A DNA stretch of 53,717 nucleotides from Candidatus Poseidoniaceae archaeon (lineage in GTDB: Archaea > Thermoplasmatota > Poseidoniia > Poseidoniales > Poseidoniaceae), in assembly GCA_028821785.1 (NCBI GenBank), contig JAPKFC010000003.1, positions 1 to 53,717 of the forward strand. The letters are read 5' to 3'. Positions 5,401 to 15,704 of this stretch are shown piece after piece. The stretch's first letter is position 1, and every line of letters starts with the position of its first letter. A program made the position numbers and the translations under genes. The notes under the pieces are model-generated. The model was not told the DNA's origin. It made no database searches and worked only from the letters and a program-made list of their open reading frames with translations.

Positions 5401-7470
5401 TTACTGGGTTTTTGCTCTTTTAACTTCTGATTGACGTTGATAAGCGTTAATGAATACTAACAATATTGCAGCCAAAGTTCCCACTTGCATGACAATATTA
5501 GAATATAGTTTCAACTCTGGTTGCCATGAATGAATTTCAATTGTTACTGTACCTTCATCGTCCATTTCAAAATATACCAAATGGTTTTCCAAAACATGTG
5601 GAGACCATTGATCTATTTCATCTGAAGTCAATGTCTCTGTAATATTGCTTTCTAAATTGGTGAAATAAATTTCACCATCTAAATATTTTTGTTGTGGATT
5701 AGCAGGATTGAGATGGTCCTTCACCGACCATGCCAAGATTCCATGCCCAAGACTCGGGTCTTTTACCGGGTATTTCGCGTCACTTGCTAACCATTGCGTC
5801 CCACTATCTCTATCAAACAGCACAAGACGTTCGGTTGCAGTTACATTGACGGTCGCTGCAACATAATCATAATTGAATACAAGATTTGTTATTTTGGCAT
5901 TGCTCATATTTACTGGAGTTCCCCACGATTCAAGCACTAGGTCTTGTTCGGGCGCTGCTTGGGCATTAATCTCAATCTGAAGTGCACCAAGAGTTCCGAT
6001 TCTAGCGATATATACTGTTGTTGGATTATCATTTGTGACATACGCAATCTCGCTACCTGCAGTTCTTATCATGGTGATGTTATGAATTTCAGGAGTTGGC
6101 ATAAATAATTGTTCACCTTCGATGTTAAAACCTGAAATATCTCCATCTTTGAGCATGATTATCGCAGGACCTGAAGGGGTATTTGCGATGATGATTTGTT
6201 CCGGGGAATCAACTGGCATACTCAAAGTAATTATTTCTGGAGTTGTGATATCTACTGCCATCAGCGTAGTTTCATTAGACATTACCACTAAAGTATCTGA
6301 AATCGCATAGGGGGAATCTAATTTCATAATTGGTTGTACTACGTCAATTGCAGATGCTGAATTTATTGAAAGATCATGAACAACCAATAATGCACCTTCT
6401 ACTCTATCGTCCATGGTTACCATCCAACCGTCAACTGCCTCAACACCTTGAGGTGCCTCAACTCCGCCTGCTGGCAACGATTGGTGGGTTAGGTCCCAAG
6501 TGATTATTGAAGTTATCAAAATTAATACGACTATTGCAAGAACCCCTGTTTCCCTACTGGTTGGTGTTCTGTATTGCTGAATGGTATCTTTGATTTTTCC
6601 ATTGACAATAGACAATGCTTTTCCAGGATTTGTTAGTACTGTAACCAATCTGGAATTAATAGTTCTCTCATCAAAAACCTTCCACCATGGGCCTGCTGTT
6701 CTTTCTGCTAAACCTACTGCTGCAACGGCAACAAGCATTCCACCGATGATATCTAAGAACCAATGGATTCCGAGATAGACGATTGCAAATGAAGTTAACA
6801 AAACATATGATAAAACGAGATGACGATAACGATTCCACCGTTTATCTTCATCAAATCTAGTAATGCACAACCACACAGCAAATGGTACGCCAATGTGTAG
6901 ACTCGGCATCGCATTAGAAAATGGGTCGATTCTTCTAAACCAATCGTTAATTTCTGGAGTTAATGAATATGCCAATGTTTCCATTTCGGGAATTGTGTCA
7001 CCTGTTACTCTAACATTGAAGAAAAGATAAAACGGAACTGCTAGCAAGTATACCCAAGCGATAGAAAGTGTGATTCTATCTGCCATCCATCTATCATCAA
7101 AATAAGCAAAATAAAAGATTGAAACATAACAAATAAACATGAATCCTGTAACATAATAATGTGTCAAGAACACAGTCAGTGCATCGTTTTCAAACGTTTG
7201 TTGTACCCAAAGCACCATATTTCCTTCAATGGCATAAATCCATGGAGTCATATCCAATCCAGCTGAAGCCATCAGAATTCGATCGACTTGATCAAGGAAA
7301 TCTTTAGCGTTATAGATCATAAAAACGATTGTTATATGAATCCAATATCTGCGAACAAAATCCACAAATGTCGGAATTGTTATAGTAAACCAAGGTGGTT
7401 TGAAAACAGGTAAAAGTATGACTCCTAGCGCCAATGCACTAATCATCCAACTCAAATAAATCCCGTCCAT
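5401..7470 (-). CDS. PAP2-superfamily (Aur1/IPC synthase-like) membrane enzyme fused to a putative extracellular beta-propeller domain with a C-terminal TM segment
   Basis: NAMPSLH and LGIHWFLDIIGG motifs in a multi-TM N-terminal half; beta-rich C-terminal half; GGAGGT SD upstream. Confidence 0.75.
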   Translation of the reverse strand: MDGIYLSWMISALALGVILLPVFKPPWFTITIPTFVDFVRRYWIHITIVFMIYNAKDFLDQVDRILMASAGLDMTPWIYAIEGNMVLWVQQTFENDALTVFLTHYYVTGFMFICYVSIFYFAYFDDRWMADRITLSIAWVYLLAVPFYLFFNVRVTGDTIPEMETLAYSLTPEINDWFRRIDPFSNAMPSLHIGVPFAVWLCITRFDEDKRWNRYRHLVLSYVLLTSFAIVYLGIHWFLDIIGGMLVAVAAVGLAERTAGPWWKVFDERTINSRLVTVLTNPGKALSIVNGKIKDTIQQYRTPTSRETGVLAIVVLILITSIITWDLTHQSLPAGGVEAPQGVEAVDGWMVTMDDRVEGALLVVHDLSINSASAIDVVQPIMKLDSPYAISDTLVVMSNETTLMAVDITTPEIITLSMPVDSPEQIIIANTPSGPAIIMLKDGDISGFNIEGEQLFMPTPEIHNITMIRTAGSEIAYVTNDNPTTVYIARIGTLGALQIEINAQAAPEQDLVLESWGTPVNMSNAKITNLVFNYDYVAATVNVTATERLVLFDRDSGTQWLASDAKYPVKDPSLGHGILAWSVKDHLNPANPQQKYLDGEIYFTNLESNITETLTSDEIDQWSPHVLENHLVYFEMDDEGTVTIEIHSWQPELKLYSNIVMQVGTLAAILLVFINAYQRQSEVKRAKTQ

Positions 7471-7566: not shown

Positions 7567-7920
7567 TCACCACGCGCCATGCACGTATGGTTTGCCATTA
7601 TCTGGGTCACGACGATTTGCTAATGCCCAGATTCTCTCAAATCTAAATATTCCATTTGAACAACCATTCTGCCATATGAAATTAAGAGCATAATGTCCAA
7701 CTGGGTTAACACTTGGTTTGTGTAGTTTGAACGATTCTACTTGTTCGCGTAGTTTTAGGCTTGTTTCGTCTTCATTTCTTAGCGGTGAACAATTAGCACA
7801 TGGGCATGCATGGCGTAAATCATGATAGGTGACCGAGAACTCTTCCTCGTTGTCATAAGTCAAATGAAAATCTGATTCACGTCGTTCAATACGTACTAAA
7901 GTTGGCATCTGTTCTGCCAT
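7567..7920 (-). CDS. DUF971 / gamma-butyrobetaine hydroxylase N-terminal-like protein
   Basis: LRHACPCANC and VGHYALNFIWQNGCSNGIF match the DUF971 pattern (CPCAxC ... GxYAl ... DGHxxGIY). Confidence 0.85.
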   Translation of the reverse strand: MAEQMPTLVRIERRESDFHLTYDNEEEFSVTYHDLRHACPCANCSPLRNEDETSLKLREQVESFKLHKPSVNPVGHYALNFIWQNGCSNGIFRFERIWALANRRDPDNGKPYVHGAW

Positions 7921-7929
7921 AATAGTCCC

Positions 7930-8940
7930 TCAAATTATCTCCAAGGAAGAAGCAGGCTTATCCGAAATTTGTGCTTGAACCGCTTTGACTATTGCGGAAA
8001 ATGCGATACTACTAGCCCCTTCTGGGTCGCTAACTATTTTGTGAACGCCATCATCTCCACCACGGACGAATCCTGGGTCGAATGGTAATGCTCCCAAGAA
8101 CGGAACACCGAAGTCTTCCGCAGTTGACTTTCCACCTCCCTTTTTGAAAATATCAAGCGTTACTGAAAAGTTTCCATTTTCATCAGATGTTGATTTAATA
8201 GTTTTACCACCTGGTCCAGCGATTTCAACTGAGGAGTTTGCTGCCGTTACGCCATTAATTGTATATCCTGACATGTTTTCAACAACTCCAAGAACAGGTA
8301 CTTTGAGTGATTCTGCGAAGGTGATAGACTTTCTACTATCCAACAAAGCAACCGCTTGTGGAGTTGTGACTATTACCATCCCGTCAATATTTGGAAGTGA
8401 TTGTGATACGGTCAAGGGTTCATCAGATGTCCCTGGCGGGAAATCGATGATAAGGTAATCCAAATTGCCCCATTCAACATCACCAATGAATTGTTGAATC
8501 GCTCCTAACTTGATCGGTCCACGCCAAACAACAGGGGTATCAGGGTCGTCCAATAGGAATGCCATCGAAATTACCTTGACCCCGAGATGTCCTTTGGCAG
8601 GATGAATTCTACCTTGTTCGACATGAAGTTTATGACCGTCTAAACCCATCATTTTTGGAACGTTTGGGCCTGTGATATCGATGTCTAAAATACCAACTTT
8701 GTGACCTTGTTGAGCAAGAGATAGTGCTAATCCTGTGGAAACAGTTGATTTGCCAACTCCTCCTTTACCAGATAATACCATAATCTTGTGTTTGATTTTC
8801 ATCCCAATCTCTTGCATCGACATTTTACGCTTCATTTGCGCGTAATTTTGCTCCATTTCCTTCTTTTGTTGTGGAGATGGTGATACTGGCCCTTGCTCCT
8901 CATTTTTAGGGTCATGTGTGGTGATTGGTGATTCTGCCAT
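7930..8940 (-). CDS. mrp: Mrp/NBP35/ApbC family P-loop ATPase (atypical, no Cys)
   Basis: SGKGGVGKST, LDIDITGPNVP, VVWRGP, IIDFPPGTSD, VTTPQ and ENMS motifs; start moved to MAESP (8940). Confidence 0.92.
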   Translation of the reverse strand: MAESPITTHDPKNEEQGPVSPSPQQKKEMEQNYAQMKRKMSMQEIGMKIKHKIMVLSGKGGVGKSTVSTGLALSLAQQGHKVGILDIDITGPNVPKMMGLDGHKLHVEQGRIHPAKGHLGVKVISMAFLLDDPDTPVVWRGPIKLGAIQQFIGDVEWGNLDYLIIDFPPGTSDEPLTVSQSLPNIDGMVIVTTPQAVALLDSRKSITFAESLKVPVLGVVENMSGYTINGVTAANSSVEIAGPGGKTIKSTSDENGNFSVTLDIFKKGGGKSTAEDFGVPFLGALPFDPGFVRGGDDGVHKIVSDPEGASSIAFSAIVKAVQAQISDKPASSLEII

Positions 8941-8998
8941 GAGCCAATCGTGGTGCGAGTAATACTTCAACCTGTGCGGTGAAAAATAGTGCCAAAAA

Positions 8999-9364
8999 TT
9001 ATAATTCTAATAATTTCAATCTACGTTCAATTTCTTCGGCTGTTGTTTTGTAAACCCCGTATTCTTGGCCGAATGGGTCATCTAACCCCCAATCCTCATC
9101 AATTTTCATCGAAGGGCAATGAACTCCACAACCCATTGAAATCACCATATCGTAATTTTCAGCGGAGAAATCATCAACTGATTTCGGCACCATTCCATCT
9201 GTATTAATACCCCTTGAATGAAGATATCTTTGGGCTTTGGAGGCTATTGTTGCTGAGTTCGGGTGAGTTCCTGCAGAGTCTGCAGTATGCCCCATTGAAC
9301 GGGCTAATCCTTGTGCCATCTGAGAGCGGCATGAGTTCCCGAAGCATACGAATAATAGACGCAT
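8999..9364 (-). CDS. arsC: Low-molecular-weight phosphatase / thioredoxin-type arsenate reductase family
   Basis: CFGNSCRSQMA P-loop, SAGT, MGCGVHCP and WGLDDP motifs. Confidence 0.8.
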   Translation of the reverse strand: MRLLFVCFGNSCRSQMAQGLARSMGHTADSAGTHPNSATIASKAQRYLHSRGINTDGMVPKSVDDFSAENYDMVISMGCGVHCPSMKIDEDWGLDDPFGQEYGVYKTTAEEIERRLKLLEL

Positions 9365-9958: not shown

Positions 9959-12900
9959 TCATTGGAAACCAAAGCGGTCGCCACCGGGATTAGATTTATC
10001 ATCCTCTCCGCCTTGTTTCCTCATTACAAACATTACCACAATTGCTCCCACTATTGCAATAATTCCGAGTGCCATTACCAACGATGAAGATGATATTCCC
10101 CCTCCATCGCTAATAACATTGGATTTTTGTTCTAATGTTACAACAATTGGCACTTCTCCAGTTGCTTCACCGTAAATATCTGATGCTTGCAAGAATAGGG
10201 TATGAGTTCCATCCGGTATTCCACTACGAATTGATAATTGAAGGGAATAAATCCCATCTCCTGCAACTTTATCTCCATTGGAGCCATCATCATAGAGTTT
10301 AGACCAATCTTCATTTTGAGTTATTGGATTGAATACTCCTAATCTTGCACGGACTAACATCACACCATCTGCATCGCTAACTTCAGCCTCCAGTAGTGCA
10401 GTTGCAGTACCATCGCCTCGTATGATTTTAAGTTCTTCTACGACTATTTGTGGAGGCGTATTGAGTACTGAAATTGTAGTTGATATCTGTTCTCCGTCTG
10501 GGAGGCGGTATGGTGTTGCAGCATCTGGTTGGGCGTTATTATCAATGCTGATCCAATGCCGTAAAACTTGCTTGCCGCCGATAGAATCTGTAACGATGAA
10601 TGGAATATCATGTGAGCCCGGAGTCATTCCATTTGGTAAAGTGAAATTTCCTGCCCAAACATCACCATCAAGCAATACCAAATCGGTTAATGGTCCACCA
10701 AATATCCGCATATCAATTTGTACTGATTCCACTTCATGACCATCAAATGCCTTGGCATTAACAATAATCAAATCTCCTCGCTTAGCAATATGTGGAACAA
10801 ATTCAACTGAAGTAAGACGTGGTGCATCATTTACAACTTGAATAATTCCCGTGCCTTGTGTTATCGCTCCGAAGAAATCTGTTATTGTTACATTTAGGGT
10901 GAAGTTTCCAACTTCCAGACCAGGAACCCTAAATTGAGTTGTATATCTATCATCACCAATTGCATTATCTCCTGACAACCCTTTGTCATTTAATGTTACA
11001 ATCGAACCACCTAAAACTGTCAAGTCAACTGTTACGGAATCAATATTCCATTCATCATCAGTAGCATGTGCAACAAGATGTGCTAAAGAAGCACCTTCAC
11101 CTACCACCAATCCTTCTTCCAAGGTCAAGCTAACTAACACTGGGTCAGTATTTTCTTCAGATGTGACAATTGAAGGTGATAATACCCTGTCAATATATTG
11201 GGTTTCATTAAGGAATGCTGATTCATTATCAGTTCCATAATCAATTTCAAAACTTCTAGTGACACTTGAGACTAATCCTCTTAGTGGCCCTTCATCAATA
11301 ATCGAACCAAAGGCTGTACCTGATCCTTCTGAATCACCATAAAATCCGGTCCATTCTACAACATGGAAATTATGATTATCTCTTGGGTCATTTCCAACAG
11401 AATTAGCGACTATTTCTAGAACTATGCCATCTTGTCCGTTCAATCTGACATTATCGCCAATCATCATTGGAATTGGCACTAAGCCAGTTTCTCTTCCAAC
11501 TGTGATATTGCCAAGCGCTTGTTCCATTTCCGGTTGAGTTAGATTATTTTGAATTGGAGAACGTTCAGGTCTCTCATCTCCACTACTAGCATCTGGGCCT
11601 GTTTCTTCCCAAACAATTCGAACTGTTCTGTTATCCCAATGGTTGTTGACACTTTGATAATCCCAAGTGTTATTGTTGTATGCACCAGCACCAGCTCCAT
11701 CAAAGAAATTGCCACCATTGACTCCAGTAATATTGAACCAAGATTCTTCGTGAATTACATTTACTTCGAATTCATCACCGGAATAATTGCTCTCCATTCC
11801 TGAAACCTCAATACCCTTGACTATCCCGAAAGTTCCCTGTACATCACCGGAAAGTGTTCCATCAATGTGGATATCATCGGTTACGGTTTGTCCGTCAACA
11901 ACATCTGTTTCCAAATTGAAAATAGTTCCATTGATGACCATTGTGGCGTTTTCATCTTGATCTTCTGCACCAAATGTTCCATGACCACGGAGATTTTCTC
12001 TGTGTTGAGTACGATTTCCATCTTCCCATCTTTCAAGTATTTCCAGACCATCAAGAGATATGTCCATCCTAAATCCATCATCAATAATAATGAAATCACC
12101 TAGTGCTTCAATTTGGGTATGGCTAAGTTTTCTGACACCGTTTTCATCCCATGTTTCAAACAAAAATACACTGAGTTCAGCATCTATATCAATCGTAGTA
12201 GATGATTCATTGGTTGAATCAATTTGCATTGAACCTCCTGCCTCTAAGCGGATTCGTTCTGAATTTATTCCGTCTATCATGCTGTGGTTAATCCAAGCAT
12301 CACTAACATTAGCAATGATTTGAGTTACTGTGTCATCCTCTTCGGTTGTTATCACGAGGTATCCCCAACCCCTTGCATCAATCACTTGAGAGGTTAACAA
12401 TCCGGCTGTAATGGTTTCATTTTTCCAAATTGAATCTAATACAAAAGACATGTTTGTTGATTCGCCTTCAGTATTCTCTTCGGTTACCATCACGCCATCT
12501 CCCAATTCCCATGAATTGAGGACATCACCGACTCTCTGTTGCCATCCGTGGCCATCAAAACTCAAACTGAAATATTGTTCTCCATCTTCGGTGGTATAAT
12601 TTTGCAATAGATCCCAAGAGGTAGTAAGTGTAATTTCATGATCTGCCATCGGTTGATTCCAAGTTCCGATGTCCATACTTCGTGTGAAAAAATTATTGCT
12701 GGTAGTCGCAACGGAATCAATTGAATTCACTGTGACATCAATCGTTACTTGGTCGCCCCATTGCAGGGTTGAATTCAACAGCAAGTGGGCGGTTCTAACA
12801 CCATCATCATATCCCCATGTTGTAAAAATACTAACTTCTAATTCTGTTCCATTTTGAAGATGTGTTACTTCTGTTGTGATGTCGAATGTTGAATTACTTG

Positions 12901-13072
12901 AGAATTTTAATAAGTATGCATGGTTATTATCCGTTCCACTTTGACTTGTCCAAGCAGTTGTAATTTCAACATTTAATGGGTCAACACCATCTGCATAAAC
13001 AGAAAGTGGAGTGAGCAATAGAAGCCCAATCAGAACAATGGGAGTGATGCGTTTGTTCCCAGACATGAACAT
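9959..13072 (-). CDS. Large acidic secreted surface protein with two choice-of-anchor-X-like motifs and a C-terminal TM anchor
   Basis: Signal peptide (KRITPIVLIGLLLLTPLSVYA); LNDKGLSGDNAIGDDRYT and LYDDGSNGDKVAGDGIYS; Ig-like N(T/D)xP repeats; C-terminal TM followed by RKQ. Start moved to 13072 (or 13066) to avoid overlap with dhs. Confidence 0.75.
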   Translation of the reverse strand: MFMSGNKRITPIVLIGLLLLTPLSVYADGVDPLNVEITTAWTSQSGTDNNHAYLLKFSSNSTFDITTEVTHLQNGTELEVSIFTTWGYDDGVRTAHLLLNSTLQWGDQVTIDVTVNSIDSVATTSNNFFTRSMDIGTWNQPMADHEITLTTSWDLLQNYTTEDGEQYFSLSFDGHGWQQRVGDVLNSWELGDGVMVTEENTEGESTNMSFVLDSIWKNETITAGLLTSQVIDARGWGYLVITTEEDDTVTQIIANVSDAWINHSMIDGINSERIRLEAGGSMQIDSTNESSTTIDIDAELSVFLFETWDENGVRKLSHTQIEALGDFIIIDDGFRMDISLDGLEILERWEDGNRTQHRENLRGHGTFGAEDQDENATMVINGTIFNLETDVVDGQTVTDDIHIDGTLSGDVQGTFGIVKGIEVSGMESNYSGDEFEVNVIHEESWFNITGVNGGNFFDGAGAGAYNNNTWDYQSVNNHWDNRTVRIVWEETGPDASSGDERPERSPIQNNLTQPEMEQALGNITVGRETGLVPIPMMIGDNVRLNGQDGIVLEIVANSVGNDPRDNHNFHVVEWTGFYGDSEGSGTAFGSIIDEGPLRGLVSSVTRSFEIDYGTDNESAFLNETQYIDRVLSPSIVTSEENTDPVLVSLTLEEGLVVGEGASLAHLVAHATDDEWNIDSVTVDLTVLGGSIVTLNDKGLSGDNAIGDDRYTTQFRVPGLEVGNFTLNVTITDFFGAITQGTGIIQVVNDAPRLTSVEFVPHIAKRGDLIIVNAKAFDGHEVESVQIDMRIFGGPLTDLVLLDGDVWAGNFTLPNGMTPGSHDIPFIVTDSIGGKQVLRHWISIDNNAQPDAATPYRLPDGEQISTTISVLNTPPQIVVEELKIIRGDGTATALLEAEVSDADGVMLVRARLGVFNPITQNEDWSKLYDDGSNGDKVAGDGIYSLQLSIRSGIPDGTHTLFLQASDIYGEATGEVPIVVTLEQKSNVISDGGGISSSSLVMALGIIAIVGAIVVMFVMRKQGGEDDKSNPGGDRFGFQ

Positions 13073-13125
13073 AGGATTCTCGCACTCCCATTCAAAGCCT
13101 TTGTTGATTTGTGTTGAATAATAGT

Positions 13126-14076
13126 TCAGATATCTAAAATATAACAAAACATTAGCGGAGCAACAATAGTAGCATCGCTTTCAATTACAAACTTCTCCGT
13201 CTCAACCGAAAGTTTGCCCCAAGTTATTTTTTCATTGGGTGGGGCACCGGAATATCCCCCATAGGAAGGAGTCGATTCCGAGATTTGGCAGAACCAAGAC
13301 CACAAAGGGGTATCTTTTTCCAAGTCTTGATTGAGCATTGGTACTACACAAATTGGGAAATCTCCAGCGATTCCACCACCTAATTGCAAGAATGCCAACG
13401 GATTATTGCATTGACAATACCATTCTGCTAAACTGGTCATATATCCAATTCCACCAGTGATTGTTTGTTGCTCAACTTTACCTTGCATCACTCTTGCAGC
13501 AAATATATTGCCCAATGTTGAATCTTCCCAACCAGGTACGACCAATGGCAGATTTGCTTGTGCTGCTGCTAATAACCACGAATTCTCTGGTAATGCTTGA
13601 TACTCTAATTCATCTTCTAACAAAATATCATAAAAGAATTGGTGTGGTAATTTTGATTGCCCAAGTTGACTACTTTTTTCCCAACGGTCCATTAGATATG
13701 ATTCGATTTTTCGAAATGCTTTATCTTCGGGGATACAGGTATCTGTCACCCGATTCATGTTATTATCGAGTAAATCGGCTTCATCTTGGGCTGATAAGGA
13801 GCGCCAATCATCAATCTTTTGATAATGGTTATGAGCGACTAAATTGAATAAATCTTCTTCCAAGTTTGCACCTGTACATGAGATTGCTGCAATATGTCCT
13901 GCTCTGATCATAGGCGCAATACTGCGCCCGAGTTCAGCCGTTGACATCGCCCCGGCTAAAGTTAAAAATATCTTACCGCCAGATTCTAGAAATTGAAGTA
14001 ATGATTCACTCGCTGATGCTAATGAACCGGCATTAAAATGGCGGTAGTGCTCTTTGACAAACGTTCTCACGGACAT
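13126..14076 (-). CDS. Deoxyhypusine synthase-like protein (bacterial-type; possible homospermidine synthase)
   Basis: HFNA, TLAGAMSTAELG, CTGANLEED, GGGIAGDF and YGGYSGAPPNEKITWGK (catalytic Lys retained). Confidence 0.88.
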   Translation of the reverse strand: MSVRTFVKEHYRHFNAGSLASASESLLQFLESGGKIFLTLAGAMSTAELGRSIAPMIRAGHIAAISCTGANLEEDLFNLVAHNHYQKIDDWRSLSAQDEADLLDNNMNRVTDTCIPEDKAFRKIESYLMDRWEKSSQLGQSKLPHQFFYDILLEDELEYQALPENSWLLAAAQANLPLVVPGWEDSTLGNIFAARVMQGKVEQQTITGGIGYMTSLAEWYCQCNNPLAFLQLGGGIAGDFPICVVPMLNQDLEKDTPLWSWFCQISESTPSYGGYSGAPPNEKITWGKLSVETEKFVIESDATIVAPLMFCYILDI

Positions 14077-14481: not shown

Positions 14482-15488
14482 TGCAGATCCTCCTTTTGGA
14501 AAAAGATTGAGTCGCCAATTGTTCTGTTTTTACCGATTTGCTGAATCATTGGATTCCATCTGCCTTGGTCTTTAGCGTTAATATGATTAGCAACTATTTT
14601 TGTTGCTAACATCGCTGCTGTAAATTGGGTTAGTGGTGAATCTATTTGCGGTACAATCTCATTGACATCGGCAGAAATTACTGTTGCTTTTTCTGCATTG
14701 AATAAAGATTCGATTGTTTCCACTGCTTGCCAATATGATAGCCCGCCTGGTACCGGGGTTCCTGTTGCAGGTACGATGGACCCATCTAAGCCATCTATGT
14801 CGATACTTAGGTGAACAGGACCTTCTATCTTTGACAATGTATCTAGCCATTGTTGCCATATATCTCTACCTGTTGAATGATTTTGTGTATCCTTAGCGAA
14901 GAAAGTAGTGATTCTATCATCATTAGAAATGGTTTCAAATTCTTCTTGGCTATATGCCCTAATTCCGACTTGTAGTAGTCTTCCCACACCTAAGTCAAGA
15001 CTACGTGAGGCAGCGCATGCATGCGAATATGCCTCGCCACCTAATTGGCTACGAAGGTCTGCGTGGGCATCGATTTGGACAATGGTCAATTTAGATAAAT
15101 CATTGTTGATGAGGGGATGATTTTTGGCAGCATTAACCAAAGGCGGTAAGATTCCATGTTCTCCTCCCAATGAGAGTGGGAAACAATCCCCAGCATACCA
15201 CGGTTGAAGGTAGTTGGAAATACCATCTAATTGCTGCAATAATGAATTACCTTCACCATTCCATGGTTGATTGGTATGAATTGCATTACCTTTTGGTAGA
15301 TCAGTTCCAAGTAGCGAATCAAATAATTCAACTTGCCCACTTGCTTCAACACAAGATTTTGGTCCTTGGGAAGTTCCTTGACCATAAGAAGTGGTCAATT
15401 CATAGGGGATTTGTAAAATAACGACGTCAACAATTCCGTCATTTTCGGGCAAGCCTAGGAAGTTGCCTTCTACAAACATGCCACTCAC
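14478..15488 (-). CDS. speB: Agmatinase (ureohydrolase family)
   Basis: PYELTTSYGQGT, GGEHGI, DAHADLR, YSHAC, SIDIDGLD and TGTPVPGGL motifs. GTG start, alternative ATG at 15479. Confidence 0.88.
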   Translation of the reverse strand: MSGMFVEGNFLGLPENDGIVDVVILQIPYELTTSYGQGTSQGPKSCVEASGQVELFDSLLGTDLPKGNAIHTNQPWNGEGNSLLQQLDGISNYLQPWYAGDCFPLSLGGEHGILPPLVNAAKNHPLINNDLSKLTIVQIDAHADLRSQLGGEAYSHACAASRSLDLGVGRLLQVGIRAYSQEEFETISNDDRITTFFAKDTQNHSTGRDIWQQWLDTLSKIEGPVHLSIDIDGLDGSIVPATGTPVPGGLSYWQAVETIESLFNAEKATVISADVNEIVPQIDSPLTQFTAAMLATKIVANHINAKDQGRWNPMIQQIGKNRTIGDSIFFQKEDLQ

Positions 15489-15704
15489 CGAACTAATTCA
15501 AATCAACATTGCTTAAAAAAAGGACGGACACTAAATCTCTCTCCCGAAGAGCCATATTGAACTTTCTTACTGTCAAAAGTTGTCAATATCAGTCGATTTC
15601 ATGAAAAAACAGCGAGAAGTTAATATGGGTTGGAATACAATACATAAAGGTAGTCGGGGGAGATTATCGGCAATGCCGTATCAATCCTGCGCGGAGGAAT
15701 CATT

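Follow-up and report, generated by a model that had tools for sequence, protein, structure and literature searches.

A cysteine-free Mrp-family ATPase and a neighbouring four-cysteine DUF971 protein in Poseidoniaceae: a possible variant of a partnership in Fe-S maturation

P-loop ATPases of the Mrp/NBP35 family are taken to act by means of a [4Fe-4S] cluster bridged by a CxxC motif, which in the carrier ATPases sits at the dimer interface (PMC11838916). What, then, can such an ATPase do if it contains no cysteine at all? This question is raised by the window, i.e. the whole stretch of 53,717 nucleotides of contig JAPKFC010000003.1 (Candidatus Poseidoniaceae archaeon, assembly GCA_028821785.1) analysed in this study, in which a cysteine-free Mrp-family ATPase is encoded directly upstream of a small DUF971 protein with four cysteines (Table 1). 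A preliminary description of this DNA, made from the letters alone, had suggested that cluster binding may have moved in trans onto the DUF971 partner, or that this Mrp has a metal-free role. We show that the sole Mrp of the whole order Poseidoniales (Marine Group II archaea), which is globally abundant in the sea, has no cysteines for this mode of action, and that a second family of Thermoplasmatota is in the same situation.

The Mrp open reading frame (ORF) offers two possible starts, an ATG and a TTG further upstream, at position 8970, which would give a product of 346 aa; the ATG was chosen because homologues across the order start with MA[DE]SP. The protein matches PF10609 ('NUBPL iron-transfer P-loop NTPase') with an E-value of 1.6e-88 (296.7 bits, cut-off 27.1), and the match is split around an insert (model positions 1-181 and 185-245). 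It does not reach the NCBIfam equivalog cut-offs for ApbC (NF008669, 199.8 vs 348) or MrpORP (NF041136, 314.2 vs 450). The nucleotide motifs are all intact, namely the deviant Walker A with its signature lysine, the switch region LDIDITGP (residues 85-92) and the Walker B region DYLIIDFPPGTSDE (residues 161-174, including IDFPPGTSDE, of the form DxPPGTxD), and the latter two, like the first, are invariant in our alignment of Mrp sequences (A1). None of the 336 residues is a cysteine. The remaining long ORFs in the window have a cysteine content of 1.0%, at which a protein of this length would lack cysteine with a probability of ~0.03. The cysteine-free state is therefore modestly unusual when taken alone, and it gains its weight from being conserved across the lineage.

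The place of the missing motif is taken by a different structure. Canonical relatives have ~10 residues with CPxC at this site (ENMSGFxCPHCGxxxDIFKxGGG). In the window's Mrp the flanks are recognizable (ENMSGY, residues 221-226, before the site, and DIFKKGGG after it), no cluster-bridging CxxC follows shortly after ENMS, and a 36-residue insert separates the two flanks. In the AlphaFold2 (AF2) model of the protein, which has the SIMIBI fold (pLDDT 83, pTM 0.81), the insert is predicted to form four beta strands (226-231, 237-241, 247-251 and 257-262) with a pLDDT of ~86-94 for the block; a weak match to Big_6 (E 9.7e-5) lies under the Pfam cut-off. Judged by its sequence and predicted structure, the Mrp itself is unable to hold a bridging [4Fe-4S] cluster through cysteine, because the CxxC loop has been replaced by this four-stranded insert. 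Translation, the PF10609 match and the comparison with canonical loops thus bear out what the preliminary description had said of the ATPase, i.e. that its motifs are intact, that it has no cysteine and that the CPxC is gone.

The second protein (117 aa) belongs to the DUF971/GBBH-like_N family, with a PF06155 score of 55.6 bits against a cut-off of 22.8. The metal site of this family consists of three cysteines (CxCxxC) and the histidine of a DGH motif. The CxCxxC is present here as CPCANC (Cys39, Cys41, Cys44), invariant in our DUF971 alignment (A2), and the fourth position is occupied by Cys87 (NGCSNG), which aligns with the histidine both in phmmer alignments to 3LUU, 2L6N and 2L6P and in fusion proteins of the sister order MGIII. 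The site is thus a Cys4 variant, its cysteines matching the residues of 3LUU that serve as metal ligands. The claim that a DUF971 protein with CPCANC and a cysteine at the histidine position follows the Mrp at a distance of 9 nt was therefore correct. The AF2 model (pLDDT 88.6, the last residues being of low confidence) gave 2L6N as the best Foldseek match, followed by the N-terminal domain of human BBOX1, which we take to bind Zn through three cysteines and one histidine. The C-terminal tail of the protein, DPDNGKPYVHGAW (consensus DPDxGxPYVHGAW), is kept in Poseidoniaceae and in family f2 and is missing in MGIIb. In addition, a fifth conserved cysteine near the N-terminus (E[ES]C.[ML].F) was observed in many DUF971 proteins of MGIIb (alignment A2; loci L056-L075).

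Both features are properties of the order rather than of a single genome. The 120 database clusters closest to the Mrp are all at least 78% identical to it, the named ones being Poseidoniales or Poseidoniaceae, and 110 of them have no cysteine; the rest have sporadic cysteines or cysteines in N-terminal extensions. In each of 55 sampled loci from three Poseidoniales families the CPxC is missing and the insert is present, its length and key residues being kept (alignment A1), and almost all of these proteins have either no cysteine or one that is not conserved. Likewise, a cysteine stands at the histidine position in every sampled Poseidoniales DUF971 (59 loci: 39 from Poseidoniaceae outside this genome and 20 from MGIIb and f2); within alignment A2 it does so in 25/25 Poseidoniales rows, histidine being found in the MGIII fusion row only.

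Copy number leaves little room for a conventional paralogue. Exactly one Mrp match was found in 117 of the 121 Poseidoniales genomes, and one DUF971 in 120 of the 121. A search of the window's own genome (86% complete) for a second canonical Mrp revealed none; two weak extra P-loop matches lie under the cut-off, one being ArsA/Get3-like by its motifs, and no P-loop ORF was recovered at the other. Since the sole Mrp of the order has no cysteine, it needs a job which is independent of a cluster of its own.

The association of the two genes is tight in one family. DUF971 lies directly after Mrp in 39/39 sampled Poseidoniaceae loci outside this genome, and among the three Poseidoniales families sampled this adjacency is confined to Poseidoniaceae. 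The expectation that this type of Mrp and the His-to-Cys DUF971 go together was thus confirmed as regards co-occurrence, as nearly all Poseidoniales have one of each, and as regards linkage it holds for Poseidoniaceae and fails for MGIIb and f2. The unlinked DUF971 genes of the latter two groups occupy a separate conserved neighbourhood with genes for an RND-type membrane protein, a Pus10-like and an L21e-like protein (assigned by eye), which looks like a housekeeping context and is uninformative; in MGIIb, DUF971 has the first of these genes on one side and the other two on the opposite side.

A link between the two families is also visible outside the order. Among 151 Thermoplasmatota genomes, DUF971 was found in Poseidoniales, in MGIII (G146) and in G179 only; G146 and G179 have it as the C-terminal part of an ORF with the order DUF59-Mrp-DUF971. 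Within MGIII it is present in 24 of 31 genomes; 19 of the 25 matches fall within ORFs of 429-536 aa, the frames of the remaining 6 are shorter, and all 11 full-length MGIII ORFs that were fetched combine Mrp with DUF971. In most of these fusions the Mrp domain retains its CPEC, and the DUF971 part has CPCAxC...DGH. Moreover, cofitness of Mrp and DUF971 has been published for Shewanella and Pseudomonas genera (10.1101/072470; PMC12041740). The two-component reading of the preliminary description is therefore supported in so far as a functional link is concerned, and its other part, a cluster residing on DUF971, is weakened by the situation in family f29.

This family (f29, metagenome-assembled genomes named 'Thermoplasmatota archaeon') encodes an Mrp that is ~49% identical to that of the window and carries a homologous insert. 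The insert is present in all of ~86 f29-type database clusters except one partial and one frame-disrupted record; 32 of the clusters are cysteine-free, and the others have one non-conserved cysteine. The insert-type protein is the sole Mrp in 30/32 f29 genomes, and DUF971 was found in 0/32. In its sister families, f33 and f46, the Mrps are canonical. The Mrps of Poseidoniales share three further elements that are absent from f29 and canonical Mrps (alignment A1), namely SP[IV][ST]xH at the N-terminus, the helix (Q)MEQAYAQMKRKM ahead of the P-loop, and LE-II at the C-terminal end. The neighbours of the f29 Mrp are not conserved, except that in two genera (L076/L100 of G241; G164:C4:333769-337181) an A-type carrier (PF01521) lies ~2 kb downstream. 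An unannotated gene of ~330 aa separates the two, and the arrangement is missing in a third f29-type genome.

In a maximum-likelihood tree the Mrps of Poseidoniales and f29 are joined (Shimodaira-Hasegawa-like approximate likelihood ratio test, SH-aLRT, 96) among archaeal stand-alone Mrps of the CPHC type, and the MGIII fusion is placed in the other, bacterial-like half (SH-aLRT 97). When the loop/insert was excised, a constrained clade of Poseidoniales and f29 was better than the free tree (approximately unbiased test, p = 0.92). A single origin of the insert, in an archaeal Mrp of the stand-alone type, is most likely. For the ATPase, descent by fission from an HCF101-like ancestor was considered and rejected, given the position of the MGIII fusion in the bacterial-like half; the pair of Poseidoniaceae is not just an HCF101-like fusion that has come apart, because its Mrp groups with the archaeal CPHC types and not with that fusion. 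Among the best 150 Mrp representatives of an all-of-life comparison, many have neither CxxC nor insert (ENMSYFxxPDxxxxYxIFG types), and several are cysteine-free; no fusion to DUF971 was found among these 150, the long ones having other C-terminal domains. A few DUF59-Mrp proteins (P0189, P0199; one cluster labelled '[bacterium]') have a beta insert of 40-45 residues at the same loop. They fall outside the archaeal insert clade in the tree, and a convergent insertion is possible.

How may such a protein work? We give an even chance to the interpretation that the putative two-gene operon of Poseidoniaceae is a variant of the Mrp-DUF971 partnership in Fe-S maturation, with the ATPase as an adaptor and the cargo on its partners. 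This interpretation builds on the anatomy of the two proteins, their conservation, their linkage and the fusions found in relatives. A dimerising Mrp would serve as an ATP-driven clamp or adaptor, its beta insert would provide a new surface where relatives bind the cluster, and partner proteins would carry the cargo (metal or cluster) or the client, by analogy with HypB of the Mrp/MinD type and HypA. DUF971 would be the dedicated partner of Mrp in Poseidoniales, presumably in physical contact with it. The four cysteines coincide with the family's mononuclear 3Cys+His site, and for this reason the site is more likely to be occupied by Zn in a structural role or by one metal ion than by a [4Fe-4S] cluster in transit. 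Cluster carrying itself would be left to the A-type carrier (found in 9/9 genomes checked), to SufT and to the SUF system.

Several observations weigh against this adaptor model. In Thalassarchaeaceae/MGIIb and the third family, f2, the Mrp and DUF971 genes are unlinked, being far apart or on different contigs. Furthermore, since f29 has the same type of Mrp and no DUF971 in any of its genomes, DUF971 is not obligate for an insert-type Mrp; its candidacy as an obligate partner was accordingly rejected. Finally, the order-wide replacement of histidine by cysteine and the extra cysteine of MGIIb are left unexplained by a purely structural Zn site.

The replacement of histidine by cysteine also speaks for the alternative put forward at the outset, a split Fe-S scaffold in which a transferable cluster is held by the cysteines of DUF971 and the cysteine-free Mrp dimer provides only ATP-driven assembly and release. 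The cluster could possibly bridge two DUF971 copies or be shared with the cysteine of SufT, which occurs as a stand-alone protein with TSPGCP in the window's genome. Such a scaffold would fit the fixation of cysteine in all 59 sampled loci, whereas those MGIII fusions which retain the CxxC have histidine. In three loci of the MGIII genus g106 the fused DUF59-Mrp-DUF971 protein has an Mrp loop, ENMSGFTPPGSDEVFHIFG, without CxxC, and its DUF971 part retains CPCAHC; this is an independent loss of the CxxC inside a fusion, although the fourth ligand of the DUF971 site has there been lost (FTDPSPGAGAGIY) and not strengthened. A precedent for ligands outside the canonical motif is provided by plant HCF101, which has no family CXXC, yet carries a transferable [4Fe-4S] cluster via Cys128 (in DUF59), Cys347 and Cys419 (PMC2805927). 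We nevertheless regard the split scaffold as unlikely. The sole Mrp of f29 has the insert and no conserved cysteine, and manages without DUF971; relatives have a compact mononuclear site where the four cysteines sit; and the Cys triad is missing from the Shewanella and Pseudomonas structures 2L6N and 2L6P (phmmer alignments), though the DUF971 proteins of these genera are cofit with Mrp. The separation of the two genes in MGIIb also speaks against a two-component scaffold. The proposed move of cluster binding onto DUF971 has found no direct support, and f29, the mononuclear site and the gammaproteobacterial proteins weaken it.

The likeness to HCF101 may also be pursued further. The CxCxxC of DUF971 in HCF101 homologues has been noted earlier, its function being called elusive (PMC7980591). 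It could be imagined that Poseidoniaceae have a naturally split HCF101 in three pieces, with the cysteine-free Mrp dimer as an ATP-driven frame and a labile Fe-S cluster at a composite site formed by the Cys4 DUF971, perhaps including the cysteine of SufT/DUF59 and docked on the beta insert. We consider this rather improbable; if true, it would provide the first biochemical role for DUF971 and a case of the Mrp family in which cluster ligation has been fully outsourced to accessory subunits. The DUF59/SufT gene is found on a different contig from the Mrp-DUF971 pair. It encodes a protein of 108 aa (TSPGCP) and is grouped with genes for a SufE-like protein (GCQS) and a SufS-like desulfurase (locus L091; G000:C13, ~15404-15628 plus flanks), both assigned by eye. 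The proteins of this cluster are stand-alone counterparts of the N-terminal module of HCF101.

At the other extreme, the Mrp might have left Fe-S biogenesis altogether and act in metal-free positioning, assembly or chaperoning through its insert, with the adjacency of DUF971 being incidental or reflecting some other shared function. ATPases of the SIMIBI/ParA-like type are frequently recruited to new roles. A protein with zero metal ligands and, in the AF2 model, a new surface element at the former cluster site would suit such a function, the neighbouring genes of f29 and MGIIb are not specific for Fe-S proteins, and the presence of a canonical A-type carrier would make a carrier role of Mrp unneeded. 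We hold this possibility to be about as doubtful as the split scaffold. No other Mrp accompanies the protein in each genome, and it is conserved like a core gene; its closest relatives in sequence and fold are Fe-S carriers, and DUF971 is elsewhere fused or genetically tied to Mrp; the A-type carrier near the Mrp of two f29 genera likewise argues against a metal-free role.

The relationship to Fe-S carriers is evident from the structural comparison. The top Foldseek matches of the Mrp model are ApbC (8ZKC, E 4.8e-24), Cfd1 (6G2G, E 4.5e-23) and AF2382 (2PH1/3KB1), and the sequence search agrees, with 8ZKC, 6G2G, 2PH1 and 3KB1 as the best matches. The next Foldseek match after these carriers is the Mrp/MinD-type HypB of Thermococcus kodakarensis, an ATPase with no metal site which joins HypA in a 2:2 complex that depends on ATP, HypA having one site for Ni and a Cys4 site for Zn (PMC7055735). 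By this precedent, the pair of Poseidoniaceae could act as a single-ion metallochaperone, with Zn, Fe, Co or Ni held at the Cys4 site of DUF971 and delivered under the control of the ATPase, and the mononuclear geometry of that site, inferred by homology, would be suitable. Mutants of DUF971 in Pseudomonas and Shewanella are cobalt-sensitive, which is in agreement with metal delivery, though damaged Fe-S clusters would account for it just as well. A buried Cys4 site would more commonly hold a structural metal than a transferable one. Moreover, the identity of Mrp to HypB is 29%, as compared with 36-38% to ApbC, Cfd1 and AF2382, and no match to HypA (PF01155) exceeded the cut-off in 12 genomes of Poseidoniales and f29, so that a HypB/HypA system proper was rejected. 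Taken together, these data make a metallochaperone the most doubtful of the functions considered here.

The other genes around the pair are listed in Table 1 with the remaining features. In almost every Poseidoniales locus sampled, a gene for an ArsC-like protein adjoins either Mrp or its pair with DUF971, usually in convergent orientation; here and in the closest relative it lies upstream on the same strand. Its product has a CX5R motif (CFGNSCRS) and scores under the arsenate-reductase equivalog cut-offs. Directly downstream of DUF971 there is a gene for a protein with a PAP2_3/PAP2 domain at its N-terminus, followed by a long beta-rich part and, at the C-terminus, a hydrophobic segment. An acidic protein rich in Thr, Ser and Asp, with a C-terminal hydrophobic anchor, is probably a surface protein.

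Table 1. Position of the Mrp-DUF971 gene pair, its motifs and neighbouring genes within the window.
Feature	Position	Strand	Details and basis
Mrp/NBP35-family P-loop ATPase	7930..8940	(-)	336 aa from ATG, 0 Cys; PF10609, 296.7 bits
Deviant Walker A SGKGGVGKS, residues 57-65	8746..8772	(-)	translation; invariant in alignment A1
36-residue insert TINGV...FSVTL, residues 227-262	8155..8262	(-)	occupies the site of the CPxC loop; comparison with canonical loops
Mrp elements shared by Poseidoniales, N-terminal and before the P-loop	8800..8940	(-)	alignment A1
Mrp element shared by Poseidoniales, C-terminal end	7933..7944	(-)	alignment A1
9-nt spacer GGGACTATT	7921..7929	(-)	between Mrp stop and DUF971 start
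DUF971/GBBH-like_N protein	7567..7920	(-)	117 aa, four Cys; PF06155, E 9.2e-15
CPCANC (Cys39, Cys41, Cys44)	7789..7806	(-)	translation; invariant in alignment A2
Cys87 (NGCSNG), at the position of the family's fourth-ligand His (DGH)	7660..7662	(-)	phmmer alignments to 3LUU, 2L6N, 2L6P
C-terminal tail DPDNGKPYVHGAW	7570..7608	(-)	kept in Poseidoniaceae and f2, missing in MGIIb (alignment A2)
Low-molecular-weight phosphatase/ArsC-like protein	8999..9364	(-)	121 aa; PF01451, E 5.6e-19; module membership unproven
PAP2 protein	5401..7470	(-)	689 aa
Acidic Thr/Ser/Asp-rich protein	9959..13147	(-)	1062 aa

The findings bear on the way in which HCF101-type and other CxxC-less Mrps work, and on the function of DUF971, which has so far been known from cofitness and fusions only. 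The Mrp-DUF971 pair of Poseidoniaceae offers a clean experimental system for the role of DUF971 and for a cluster-free Mrp ATPase. As the ATPase is free of cysteine, any metal or cluster in a reconstituted complex of the two proteins must sit on DUF971.

It should be added that the statement that neither a two-component scaffold nor a metal-free Mrp had been described was too strong, in view of HCF101 (PMC2805927) and HypB-HypA (PMC7055735). Mrps without CxxC have been described before, as has a functional connection of Mrp with DUF971; in the literature searched, we found no description of a cysteine-free sole Mrp with a beta insert in place of the CxxC loop and a separate gene for a Cys4 DUF971 partner. 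Among known systems, plant HCF101 resembles the Poseidoniaceae in that the SufT/DUF59, Mrp and DUF971 modules are all present in the genome, that the Mrp has no CXXC and that the DUF971 has CxCxxC. In Poseidoniaceae, however, the modules are three separate genes, the Mrp has no DUF59 domain, zero cysteines and the 36-residue beta insert instead of the CxxC loop, and the fourth ligand of DUF971 is cysteine, not histidine. With ApbC, Nbp35, Cfd1 and Ind1 the Poseidoniaceae Mrp has in common the deviant Walker A, the switch regions and the length of the ATPase core, whereas their defining feature, the cluster-bridging CxxC, is missing. HypB-HypA shares with the pair the combination of an Mrp-family ATPase without a metal site of its own and a small Cys4 partner, and HypB is a structural neighbour by Foldseek; it differs in sequence (~29% identity), and the partner in Poseidoniaceae has a different fold, that of DUF971. 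The stand-alone bacterial DUF971 proteins (e.g. PP_5002; 2L6N, 2L6P, 3LUU) are likewise small, have the same fold and are tied to Mrp by cofitness. In the gammaproteobacterial pair, however, DUF971 has no Cys triad and the Mrp keeps its CxxC, whereas in Poseidoniaceae a four-cysteine DUF971 is combined with a cysteine-free Mrp.

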